Of a stretch of DNA of 64,000 nt, positions 4,761 to 63,922 are shown one piece after another. Position numbers and translations under genes: made by a program. Source of the DNA: Hormiphora californensis (Eukaryota > Animalia > Ctenophora). The stretch is from assembly GCA_020137815.1 (NCBI GenBank), contig CM035354.1, positions 62,001 through 126,000 of the forward strand, given 5' to 3'. The notes under the pieces were generated by a model. It was not told where the DNA came from and searched no databases. It saw nothing but the letters and a program-made list of their open reading frames with translations. Within the stretch, counting starts at the first letter, position 1; every line of letters starts with the position of its first letter.

Positions 4761-7700
4761 TCAGTTCATCCACTTCCGACAGCAGAGGGAGCCACAATTG
4801 CAGGGAATTTTCTCACTATCATCCTCAAAGTCAAACTTGTAATCGTACGTCAACTGAGAGGAGAGTATCATGAGAGAGTTAGTTAGGAGAGTTAGCTGAG
4901 AGAGGGGAGAAGAGGGATGAAAATGTTACGGGGGGGGGGGGGGGGGGGGGGGGGGGGGGGGGGGGGGGGTAGGAGAGTTAGAGAGTTAGCTGAGAGGGGA
5001 GGAGAAGGGATGATGTGTCCCTATGACACTTTACCGGGGGGGGGGGGGGTACATGAACCAGGACCCCACCCGAAAACAGTGTCTCCAGCAGCACCATTAG
5101 TTATACTAGCAGCAACCCCTAGCAATTTCAAGATCAATTCTCTCACCTCTTCGCCTTGACGGATTTTCCTATTCGAAATGATAATGATTTTCTTTTCCCG
5201 TTCAAAAGTGACGATTTCCGCGACGCAGTTGGGCTCACAGGCATGATTGATGTACCTAGGGGGTAATTGGGTCAAATACTACTGAGATACAGCTGATTGA
5301 TGTACCTAGGGGGGATGATAATTGGGTCAAATACTACTGAGATACAGCTGTAGTAGTGTCGTGGACTATGAAAAACAAGATGACCAAACCCACGCAACCT
5401 GGCCGGTCCACTCCCTCCCTGCCCCCAGGGGGGGGGGGTGGTCCCAGCTAACCCAGGGTGGTATCCCACTCCCTTCACTAACCTAGCAGGTCCACCAGTC
5501 ATTGTAGCATCGATTGCCACCACATCGTCGATCTTGAACATGTAGCACCCAATGTTCTTACTGTTGTAGTATATCTCACGCAGATCGCACAGAGCCGTTC
5601 TGATCAACTGACCCACATACTCGATCACCATGGTGTTTCGCTCAATAAAGCGACGTGCATAGAGACCCAACCCTTGGATACCAGAGCGACGGAGGAGAAC
5701 GTTCAGTTTCCACTCTGTTTTTAGACGACGATACTGAGAGGCTGAAATAGTTGTGTGTGTGAGAGATGTGTATGTAATGGAGAGAGATAGGGTGAGGGAG
5801 ATATAGGGGGAGATATTTAGGGGAGTGAGAGAGGGAGAAAGTAAAACGAGAGAGAACAAAGGATCATGACCCCAAGTCCCCCCACAATATAACTTACCTC
5901 TATTAAAGGATTTCTGATAGGGAAGCATATCTTGAAAAGTTGCTAACTCCCGGGTCCAAGGACTTGACGTTTGAACCAGAGAATTCTGGACAGAAGAAGA
6001 CACTTGGCGGTGACCTCCAACTCTGAAAAAAGACAGTGTCAGAAATCTGGGTTTGTGCCAGATACACGCACATGTGAAAAAGGTAGGAAGGGGTATAACA
6101 TGGCGGGAGAGAGAGGGTGCAGCAGCAATGTACAATTTCCGCCCGGAAACTGCATGGCCCCATTGCTGCAAGAGAGAGAGAGAGAGAGAGAGAGAGAGAG
6201 GGAGAGAGAGAGAGAGAGAGAGAGAGAGAGAGAGAGAAGAGAGAGAGAGATAGGGGAGAAAGTGAGAGAGGGGGGATTCAGGCTTTGCCAATGGGGAAGC
6301 GCAAATTAACCAAATTTACGCGCCACCAGAGTGCGCGTCGCACACACTGCCTACATCTAGACACTCTGCAGCGGAGGCACCCTGAAACATTGGGCCGCAA
6401 GGTAGACCCACCGCGGCTCTCTCTCCCCCTCGTCTTGGTGCCTTCGCGCGAGAAGTGACGGGGTGGAAGAGGGTGTGGGGATCAGTAGTGGGGGATCAGG
6501 GTGCAGGGAGATACTGACCTCTTTGAGTGTTTGCTGTATTTCTCCGTCCGAGCGGACTGTGTAGGATTGAAAGGTACAAGATGTTCTAAAGTCACTGTCT
6601 CTATCCGCCCATAACAAAACGTATATGAGTCCAACTTTTCAATCCCTGGTAACCCTTCAATAATCCGTAATATCGTCCCCTCTGTGAGACCATGTAGAAA
6701 TGATGTAGTGTGGAAATCTCGGTGGAGTGTCAAGGTATTTGGTGTGGATTTCCGCACTTCCACAACCGCATCTAGTATCGGGCCCCAAACTGAGTCACAA
6801 CTATCACCCTCAACCTGAACACTCTCCTCTTTAACCCCCGAGTATTGAACCCTAAATAGCGGCATCTCATCCCGTACATCTACTGTACAATGATATCTAG
6901 TCCTGTCTTTGCCGCCACCTTCACAACTCCAATAGACCCGTGTTGCTGAGTAGTTGAATGGGTATATAATCTGCCGAGAATGGAAGTTAGATGTGTTGTT
7001 CAGGATGTGACCAGGGTGGTGAAATGTGATGGGTCCCACTTTCATCTGGTCCCCAGGTTCTCTGAAACTCTCAACAGAGAGAAGTTGTTGGAGATCTCTG
7101 TCAATCACTACTCTCCGTCGGACCAGGAAATCAGTGCAAATCACTCCGGGGATTTTGTTGTGCTGGGGACAGAACACGCTCTGGGAGGAGAGAGAGGGGT
7201 GTTAGGGAGAGGGGTGATAGGGGTGTTAGGGAGAGGGGTGTTAGGGAGGGGAGGGGTGTTAGGGAGAGAAGGGGTGTTAGGAAGGGAGGGGTGTTAGGGA
7301 GAGGGGTGATAGGGAGAGGGGTGATAGGGAGGGGAGGGGTGTTAGGGGGAGGGGTGTTAGGGAGAGAAGGGGTGTTAGGGAGAGGGGTGATAGGGAGGGG
7401 AGAGAGGGGTGATAGGGGGAGGGGTGATAGGGAGGGGAGGGGTGTTAGGGAGGGGAGGGATGCTGGGGAGGGGAGGGGTGTTAGGGAAGGGAGAGAGGGG
7501 TGTTAGGGAGAGGGGTGTTAGGGAGGGGAGGGGTGTTATTTAGGGAGGGAAAGAGAGAGAAACTATTGCCGGAGTTGGGTTGGAAGTTTGTAAGAACGTC
7601 CTAGAAGGTATAAAAACGAATTAAAATGAGTCGGCAACACAGAGAGGGGGAATACAGACAGCAACTTTCCTAAGAGCCGAGCCGCAAGAAATGACGGAAT

Positions 7701-62400: not shown

Positions 62401-63922
62401 TGGTAACCATGGTAACTACTCACCCTGGTGTCTTGGTAACCATGGTAACCATGGTAACTACTCACTCTGGTGTCTTGGTAACCATGGTAACTACTTACCC
62501 TGGTGTCTTGGTAACCATGGTAACTACTCACCCTGGTGTCTTGGTAACCATGGTAACTACTCACCCTGGTGTCTTGGTAACCATGGTAACTACTTACCCT
62601 GGTGTCTTGGTAACCATGGCAACTACTCACCCTGGTGTCTTGGTAACCATGGTAACTACTCACCCTGGTGTTTTGGTAACCATGGTAACTACTCACCCTG
62701 GTGTCTTGGTAACCACAGTAACTACTTACCCTGGTATCTTGGTAAACATGGTAACTACTCACCCTGGTGTCTTGGTAACCATGGTAACTACTCACCCTGG
62801 TGTCTTGGTAACCATGGTAACTACTCACCCTGGTGTCTTGGTAACCATGGTAACTACTCGCCCTGGTGTCTTGGTAACCATGGTAACTACTCACCCTGGT
62901 GTCTTGGTAACCATGGTAACTACTTACCCTGGTGTCTTGGTAACCATGGTAACTACTTACTCTGGTGTCTTGGTAACCATGGTAACTACTCACCCTGGTG
63001 TCTTGGTAACCATGGTAACCATGGTAACTACTCACTCTGGTGTCTTGGTAACCATGGTAACTACTTACCCTGGTGTCTTGGTAACCATGGTAACTACTCA
63101 CCCTGGTGTCTTGGTAACCATGGTAACTACTCACCCTGGTGTCTTGGTAACCATGGTAACTACTTACCCTGGTGTCTTGGTAACCATGGCAACTACTCAC
63201 CCTGGTGTCTTGATAACCATGGTAACCATGGTAACTACTCACCCTGGTATCTTGGTACTCCTTAGCATCGTTGGTACCATCCACTGTGTAAGTTCCACTC
63301 TGGTTCAGGTACCAGTAGTAGTCCGGCTCTGCCAACCCACACTCAGCTATGGAAAGAAACATCTTTAGTTAACACTATTACCTACTGATACAATGCTGCA
63401 GTAACTAACTGAACTAAATATTTAGAGTTTAGTTAACACTATTACCTACTGATACATCATACAATTGCTGCAGTAACTAACTGAACTAACTGAGCAAGCA
63501 TTGTGTACCTTTTTCATCGTCAGAAGCGCCCACTAATATTTGATAGAAGATGTGAAAGTTTCTCTCTAGTGGGTTCTGTCTGACAACTCTACTTTTCTCT
63601 AATAAGAAGTTGCTGATCCGACCACCATCTGGGAGTCCGGCCATACTGAACTGGATCTCTATGTACTTTCCCTGGGACGGAGATATATGTATGAAGCACA
63701 TTTGTGATATATGTGAGGCACATGTGGAAGAGGAGGAGTGATTGGGTGATTGAATTATTGAGTTAGTTTAGTAGTTGTTGTTTTAATGAATGACCTGATA
63801 TATTAATATGTTACAAATCAGTACAACTTACAAATCTACTAGAGTTATTATTTCGAACAGTTTTGGCGTTCCCAAAGGCCTCCAGTAAAGGATTGCTCTC
63901 GATAATAACATCTTTCACCCTC
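50487..63922 (-). CDS. MYO1E/F: Long-tailed class I myosin (Myo1E/F-like); 5' part lies beyond the window
   Basis: Motor exons [92 protein letters not shown]. The last exon 50487-51993 carries IQ, TH1, a Pro-rich segment and a C-terminal SH3 ([24 protein letters not shown]). Confidence 0.96.
52775..52940. repeat. 24-27 bp intronic minisatellite (TTCCTTACTCAACAACC...)
   Basis: About 6 copies, read directly, in a myosin intron. Confidence 0.9.
53319..53490. mobile_element. 172-bp pogo/Tigger-like MITE
   Basis: TA-CAGTCGGACCCCGAT(C/T)TAGGG ... CCCTAAATCGGGGTCCGACTG-TA, with internal ACCCCGATTTAG repeats. A lone terminus of the same family is at ~31005. Confidence 0.9.
54605..56141 (+). CDS. 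Cyclase-family (KynB kynurenine formamidase / isatin hydrolase-like) metal hydrolase, 6 exons, nested antisense in a myosin intron
   Basis: Exons ~54605-54746, 54906-55045, 55193-55361, 55560-55678, 55770-55898, 55978-56141. Motifs [19 protein letters not shown] (HxGTHxDxPxH), [32 protein letters not shown]. Hydrophobic N- and C-termini. Confidence 0.9.
57708..61345 (-). repeat. Array of 3' splice site + first ~64 nt of myosin exon (8 extra copies), interrupted by a transposon
   Basis: CTTCCCACCCAG|TTCTGGCCTACCC..GCTCTCACTAA. True exon 57771-57575. Copies near 57832, 57961, 58105, 58249, 58387, 58519, 58654 (split, resumes at 61169) and 61258. Confidence 0.95.
58701..61168. mobile_element. 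2468-bp non-autonomous DNA transposon with 9-bp TSD (MULE- or Merlin-like)
   Basis: 21-bp TIRs GGTG(T/G)GCGGACTCTAGTGCTA. TSD TCCAAGCAG at 58692-58700 and 61169-61177. Subterminal GGACTCT(T/A)TATCTAAA repeats at both ends. No transposase ORF seen. Confidence 0.92.
61959..63256 (-). repeat. 33-bp array (~39 copies) of myosin exon end + 5' splice site
   Basis: Transcript-strand unit TACCAAGACACCAGG|GTGAGTAGTTACCATGGT (GTAAGT in some copies). True exon ends at 63243. A 570-bp higher-order duplication is visible (variant at 62141 repeats at 62711). Confidence 0.97.

Follow-up and report, generated by a model that had tools for sequence, protein, structure and literature searches.

Background

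Minisatellites whose units span an intron-exon boundary are known from lancelets, where they are called 'mirages', and from some human genes; the original account of a mirage, that in Adh3, is reportedly due to Canestro in 2002. We found repeats of this type in a 64-kb window (the whole stretch analysed: 64,000 nucleotides (nt) of the ctenophore Hormiphora californensis, contig CM035354.1 of assembly GCA_020137815.1, positions 62,001 to 126,000 of the forward strand), which is animal DNA with spliceosomal introns. Exon ends, together with their splice sites, are copied into the adjacent introns of three genes. On the data analysed, this locus is a dense case of a repeat type already known. All positions below are counted from the start of the window.

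The amphioxus mirages described in the accessible parts of PMC3087553 and PMC3902484 (in Adh3, the globin genes BflGb6 and BflGb9, troponin C and PGBD5) resemble the present repeats in several respects. In them, too, intron-exon boundaries are repeated in tandem, 5' as well as 3' ones. Their units measure 10-160 nt, compared with 26-145 nt here, and many keep AG or GT intact, as do all but two of the copies that passed our search. In amphioxus the units at the boundary differ from the rest; here the innermost units differ in their intron part at junctions 28923, 30351, 38694 and 57771, and the two patterns may correspond. Amphioxus mirages vary between haplotypes, and so does the one robust case covered here by reads (the myosin donor copy at 52145-52225, absent from an allele of another sample, X5). 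Their harmlessness was demonstrated by reverse-transcription PCR, which found splicing undisturbed (PMC3087553), whereas for the ctenophore we can only infer it. Apart from belonging to another phylum, the present case differs in the number of junctions involved (13 of 138 modelled), in copy number (up to about 100, compared with 3-6 in the amphioxus globins), in the presence of both donor and acceptor copies in two introns, and in the G- and C-rich spacers.

Human splice-donor minisatellites, as given in the accessible text of PMC1557585, occur in F7 intron 7 (a variable number tandem repeat of 37 bp) and also in 6-16, CBS, lamin B2 and PDGF. As here, the end of the exon lies within the first unit, the units after it supply identical pseudo-donors, and the most upstream donor is needed; the myosin 33-nt repeat described below is a close analogue. 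Unlike the present arrays, they are isolated loci on the donor side only. In F7 only the most upstream of the identical donors, 37 nt apart, is used. In 6-16 and CBS two inner donors are used too, and therefore some leakage to inner sites is plausible here. The first-pass annotation of the window had taken the junction arrays for an undescribed system; the amphioxus and human repeats match them.

Bridged introns, with (AC)m-(GT)n in fish and (GGG)m-(CCC)n in humans (accessible part of PMC4691745), also have simple repeats that complement each other at the two ends of the intron and are predicted to draw the splice sites together. Here, by comparison, the tracts lie inside repeated junction units of about five introns and their pairing is predicted only. 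In the Rogers model of intron gain through AGGT tandem duplication (accessible part of PMC3265369), a redundant duplicate is spliced out and the protein is unchanged, as it would be here. However, here existing introns are lengthened at their ends, a new intron position was not observed, and AG-GT (an acceptor AG directly followed by GT) is not enriched. Intron gain by AGGT duplication was rejected, as every array-bearing intron keeps unique non-exonic sequence past the copies.

No ctenophore case and no genome-wide enrichment test were found in the literature searched, which included few subscription papers. The accessible part of PMC10078293 does not treat junction-spanning repeats. High indel heterozygosity in introns of a related ctenophore is described in PMC8527503, the accessible main text of which, supplements apart, reports no junction repeats. 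A ctenophore record would suggest that mirages turn up throughout the animals where introns are short and duplication rates high.

Results

Six genes were modelled (KMT2C/D-like, ribosomal-S16-like, ankyrin-repeat, G protein-coupled receptor (GPCR), myosin IE, and a cyclase lying within a myosin intron), with 69 introns, all of them GT-AG, and 138 junctions; this set does not include the first exon of the cyclase gene or three upstream ankyrin exons that are uncertain. The median intron length is about 190 nt, or about 130-160 nt once repeats are collapsed. Contigs and reads of X5 and of X1, which may be the source sample, were compared with the window at 48000-57700 only, so for the long arrays the copy numbers are those of the assembly.

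Each intron was scanned for ungapped copies of its own junctions. Copies were found in the adjacent intron at 13 junctions (eight acceptors, five donors), all in the KMT2C/D-like, ankyrin-repeat and myosin IE genes (Table 1). The exon-derived part of the copies is 3-64 nt long. These junctions are 13 of the 15 places listed in the first-pass annotation, and the copy numbers given there are close to ours; the other two places are weak. At 14948-14960 the copy has a gap and only 2-4 exon bases; at 48513-48660 the branch-point/AG region is repeated and the GPCR exon start is resembled only loosely. The repeats had been assigned to four unrelated genes, of which the GPCR gene thus drops out. Three shuffled windows contained 0, 0 and 2 local repeats when the lowest score was allowed, and a score of 15 or more was never reached, so a chance origin of the repeats is excluded. 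Each array has its own local sequence, as had been noted: a self-BLAST search gave no match between different arrays, and a transposon-derived intron family was rejected on this ground (the two largest arrays were not among the queries; their units are unrelated on inspection).

Table 1. Junction copies, associated repeats and host genes. The third column gives the junction and the number of copies passing the search; TRF, Tandem Repeats Finder.
Position	Strand	Junction; passing copies	Feature	Gene or basis
5244..5350	-	acceptor 5255; 1	acceptor duplication, 50-55 nt unit, 12 exon nt, true junction 5255/5256	KMT2C/D-like
9744..9823	-	donor 9794; 1	donor duplication, exact 38 nt unit, true junction 9794/9795	KMT2C/D-like
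14909..14999	-		weak donor duplication, 42-47 nt unit, true junction 14995/14996	below copy-search threshold
20207..20339	-	acceptor 20249; 1	acceptor duplication, 67 nt unit, 43 exon nt	KMT2C/D-like
25170..25311	-	donor 25301; 2	decayed donor array after first coding exon, 46 nt spacing	
27404..27572	-	acceptor 27446; 1	acceptor duplication, last ankyrin intron: 43 exon nt and C-rich spacer (117 nt)	
28885..29584	-	acceptor 28923; 6	acceptor array x6, 96-120 nt units with C-rich (CCACC)n spacer	ankyrin
29582..29675	-		unique 94 nt core between ankyrin arrays, own GTAAGG donor and CAG acceptor	
29672..30396	-	donor 30351; 6	donor array x6, 102-123 nt units with G-rich (GGGTG)n spacer	ankyrin
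38664..39105	-	acceptor 38694; 9	acceptor array x9, 43-47 nt units, 31 exon nt	ankyrin
40329..43043	-	acceptor 40332; 99 (TRF 104 units)	acceptor minisatellite, 26 nt unit, about 100 copies, 4 exon nt	ankyrin
48505..48672	+		borderline branch-point/AG repeat array, GPCR intron, before acceptor 48675/48676	
52145..52225	-	donor 52190; 1	myosin donor duplication, 40 nt unit	contig-spanned in X1
57708..61346	-	acceptor 57771; 8	acceptor array x8, 126-145 nt units, C-rich spacer, split by insertion 58701-61168	myosin
61738..61862	-	acceptor 61765; 1	decayed acceptor duplication, 90 nt spacing	myosin
61958..63257	-	donor 63242; 34, of which 32 with GT (TRF 37.9 units)	donor minisatellite, 33 nt unit, about 36 copies, in frame, stop-free	myosin
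4761..25322	-		KMT2C/D-like gene, 33 exons	exon phases; PHD, FYRN/FYRC, SET by Pfam
25537-26510	-		two-exon gene, weak ribosomal S16 match	only 8 homologues found
27279..43334	-		ankyrin-repeat gene, 21 modelled exons	Pfam Ank; open frame 1011 amino acids
50487..63919	-		myosin IE gene, 12 modelled exons, runs past window edge	
54600-56150	+		cyclase-family gene, antisense inside myosin intron	Pfam, exon model

The reading frames suggest that the outermost sites are the ones in use, as had been proposed: an intact protein needs them, both for the long open frame of the ankyrin-repeat gene and for the myosin model, which is colinear with P0001 through the array-bearing introns. RNA-labelled runs (X7, three short records; X8, eight short pieces, mostly less than 90% alike, none joining exons) were not used as evidence. 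The copies keep good splice signals. With a small matrix built from 64 donors and 61 acceptors, the true site was clearly best in 2 of the 13 arrays only, and the possibility that it is picked by strength was rejected, as 11 arrays hold a copy within 1 bit of it or better. Computed use of inner sites gives only stops or frameshifts in 11 of the 13 arrays.

The stepwise splicing suggested in the first-pass annotation is not generally supported. GT follows 4 of the 8 duplicated acceptors, compared with 18 of the 61 others (p=0.22), and exon-end AG is not enriched at duplicated donors either (2/5, compared with 40/64). Recursive AG-GT splicing is thus not a general rule, and it is possible at single arrays. 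The choice of the last among many near-identical acceptors is not explained by simple scanning; it may be made through exon context.

It had also been proposed that a mutational process targets or tolerates junctions. Tolerance fits the data, whereas targeting shows no significant excess over host intron sequence. In a test free of curation, 12-nt words at junctions recur in the adjacent intron in 11 of 138 cases (8.0%), compared with 959 of 14460 host intron words (6.6%; p=0.31), no significant enrichment over the transposon-free intron sequence of the window. With 16-nt words, recurrence was observed at 7/138 junctions and for 5.8% of intron words (p=0.70; 0.24 with transposons included). 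Curation gave 42 duplications, 14 of them crossing a junction, 27 purely intronic and one borderline. The number of junction-crossing events expected from the observed unit lengths and the collapsed intron lengths, with transposons removed, is 11.6-12.3 (p=0.24-0.32). The curated set excludes microsatellites, low-complexity tracts (e.g. 27734-27860), transposon-internal repeats, repeats outside modelled introns and one pair of repeats that lies across an exon (57187/57550). The ends of transposons were placed manually, with terminal inverted repeats or self-matches as support. Junction targeting is therefore not supported by the tests within this window: any excess is at most about two-fold and may be nil.

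The exon-derived parts of the copies are 0-7% diverged from the exon. A contig of X1 covers 51885-52213, including both myosin donor copies, with 0 differences, which speaks against an assembly artefact for this duplication. An X5 allele skips 52126-52184 and thus has no donor copy; one X5 allele skips the intronic array 52800-52956. The myosin donor copy has C and T at two positions, like the alternative exon allele in X1 and X5, and is thus a clean 40-nt tandem copy of a segregating sequence. A further X5 allele carries a duplication near 48186-48233 that is missing from the window. Upstream of the GPCR start, a putative acceptor at 48176-48233 (forward strand) has two 9-nt matches to CTCCACAGC with a spacing of 49 nt, and this allele duplicates the stretch between the two matches. 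The myosin acceptor array was later broken by the insertion 58701-61168, which bears terminal inverted repeats along with a target duplication of 9 nt. TRF detected five exonic repeat loci, and the period of each is a multiple of 3, as expected from selection. The picture is one of rapid birth and loss of arrays and not of a conserved device. The alleles, some segregating with and without the copy, are natural test substrates for splice-site choice.

Discussion

Local tandem duplication that often hits short introns and then passes through selection is the probable source of the repeats, which would be a tolerated by-product and not a dedicated splicing system. Slippage or microhomology-mediated repair would duplicate segments of 25-145 nt and, because the introns are short, the duplicate would often cross a junction by geometry alone. 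Selection would remove exonic duplicates unless they are in frame and keep those that leave the full exon intact; unequal exchange or slippage would then expand some of them into minisatellites. The site beside the full exon would mostly win, through first-donor scanning and exon context, and most splicing errors would carry a stop or a frameshift. Arrays could persist in this way, with splicing still joining the outermost sites beside complete exons. The junction copies indeed sit among many purely intronic duplications in the same introns. Such arrays can mislead gene prediction and short-read mapping.

Several observations weigh against the duplication-and-selection explanation. In several arrays the units include a spacer, rich in C or G, for which the sequence next to the innermost copy offers no template, and therefore plain duplication is not the whole story. 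Use of inner sites at 27446 and 63242 would give in-frame, stop-free insertions, and such products would be beyond the reach of decay. In mammalian splicing the inner of two strong donors is preferred when they are at least 45 nt apart (PMC3413131), whereas the ankyrin donor units of 102-123 nt need the opposite preference. The assignment of the outer sites comes from the reading frames, and all tests come from one window picked for this feature. Some of these tests do give an excess at junctions. With transposon inserts included, the 12-nt words of introns recur in 1016 of 23710 cases (4.3%; p=0.036), and with transposon length kept only 7.4-7.6 of the 42 curated duplications are expected to cross a junction (p=0.007-0.009); this second excess is inflated because transposon-internal repeats are left uncounted while transposon length is counted. 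Among units of at least 30 nt, 13/19 cross a junction, compared with 8.4-8.8 expected (p=0.02-0.04, in a post hoc split).

This last result would also be obtained if longer duplications arose or survived preferentially at junctions, for instance if G/C-rich tracts at intron ends stalled replication or repair, or if the conserved exon anchor prolonged the recognisability of copies. We consider such a preference doubtful. Intron words do recur more often within 30 nt of a junction (9.0%) than deeper (5.8%), the inner boundary of the duplication lies 3-9 nt from the splice site in several arrays, and the X5 allele duplicating the stretch between the CTCCACAGC matches does so at a putative acceptor. 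However, there is no excess across all lengths once transposons are removed, nor for 16-nt words, short units are scarcer at junctions than expected (1/23, compared with 3.2-3.5), and the length split was chosen after the data had been seen. A selected regulatory system, in which decoy sites tune expression via unproductive splicing and decay, is very improbable. The copies do keep GT or AG and score like true sites, and most inner sites would produce premature stops. However, the copies are young, and intact signals are therefore expected without selection; one copy is a presence/absence polymorphism; and there is no common unit, length or copy number among the arrays, the host genes being unrelated. 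It is equally hard to believe that the arrays are assembly artefacts: the assembly probably does contain small indel errors (at 49107, and in two KMT2 exons with an internal frame change), and the large arrays lie outside the region compared with X1, possibly the source sample itself, and X5; yet one duplication is spanned by a contig with no differences, the units differ among themselves in ordered ways, and one array is interrupted by an insertion with its own inverted termini and target duplication. The copy numbers of the two longest arrays may nevertheless be off.

A role of RNA structure or stepwise splicing in securing the outer sites of some introns would be compatible with tolerated duplication, and we think it rather unlikely. 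In such introns the G-rich 5' tracts would base-pair with the C-rich 3' tracts; in the ankyrin intron 28924-30351 this would produce a nested hairpin, across which the intron would be removed in one step, or, alternatively, allow removal from the 94-nt core outwards. The predicted fold of this intron pairs the G and C tracts in nested order, with the outer sites joined. The four introns with the best predicted end-to-end pairing among the 69 all bear junction copies (rank test p=0.003-0.09, depending on window size). Five introns have at least three GGG in their 5'-terminal 60 nt and at least three CCC in their 3'-terminal 60 nt, four of them with junction copies (p=0.003), and the reverse arrangement (5' CCC, 3' GGG) occurs in none; for the co-occurrence itself (5/69), p=0.008 at one setting and 0.04-0.09 at five, with no rank correlation. 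Composition shuffles beat the predicted pairing in 0/300 cases for intron 28924, 6/300 for 5256 and 11/300 for 27447, the last ankyrin intron, which has a G-rich 5' end. The bridged introns, as far as described in the accessible part of PMC4691745, provide a precedent. On the other hand, this pattern is post hoc, comes from five introns and rests on prediction. One of the four best-pairing introns, 20250, is outdone by 289 of 300 shuffles, such pairing is missing from the largest arrays (38694, 40332, 57771, 63242), and cognate ends pair no better than non-cognate ones (mean rank 0.47; 0.51 without duplications). GGG and CCC counts are uncorrelated across introns, C-rich 3' ends are common anyway, AG-GT is not enriched, and the G tracts could instead form quadruplexes. 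It is at best a tentative suggestion that tracts growing inside repeat units pair across the intron and so make junction duplications viable, the ankyrin intron with six copies at each end being nested and structure-guided. If true, pairing of G and C tracts would offer a way in which the outermost acceptor could be picked from among many identical ones.

Other features of the window

Four robust junction duplications and the weak one at 14909..14999 lie in the KMT2C/D-like gene, whose exon-to-exon phases agree. Frame changes were observed inside two of its exons (21237-21457 and 10091-11675) and in the GPCR gene (49107). One base at 49107 is missing from the X1 and X5 contigs, which contradict the window there, and thus the GPCR frame change is likely an assembly indel; those in the KMT2 exons are probably of the same kind. 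The ankyrin-repeat gene probably has further exons up to about 47480. A myosin exon is 39-55% identical to named proteins of animals and other eukaryotes, and 69% to one further protein. The S16-like gene matches a Pleurobrachia bachei protein (86% identity across 53% of the query); this single named hit suggests a host close to Pleurobrachia.

The myosin donor minisatellite has a higher-order repeat of 570 nt. Its 33-nt unit contains a palindrome, and another lies near the weak KMT2 donor duplication (14880-14990); we take both to resemble the RFX X-box. A possible extra acceptor copy at 52688 is too short to count. The 3' ends of introns at 7192-8462, 21962-22025 and 23863-24440 (reverse strand) contain arrays of branch-point-like CTAAC with a pyrimidine tract and without AG. 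A 35-nt satellite occupies 1-1118, outside the modelled genes.

Part of the insertion 58701-61168, presumably a Mutator-like element, matches 1962-2228 in inverted orientation. A retroelement, which we take to be Penelope-like, lies inside an ankyrin intron at 32770-37650; it carries an inverted duplicate of its own 3' part and a weak GIY-YIG match under the Pfam cut-off. In a KMT2 intron, 16457-17799 holds an inverted repeat with perfect arms of 665 nt and a loop of 13 nt, either a fold-back element or an assembly artefact. A small inverted-repeat element at 53317-53492 has very high summed depth in X1 and X5 and thus belongs to a high-copy family.

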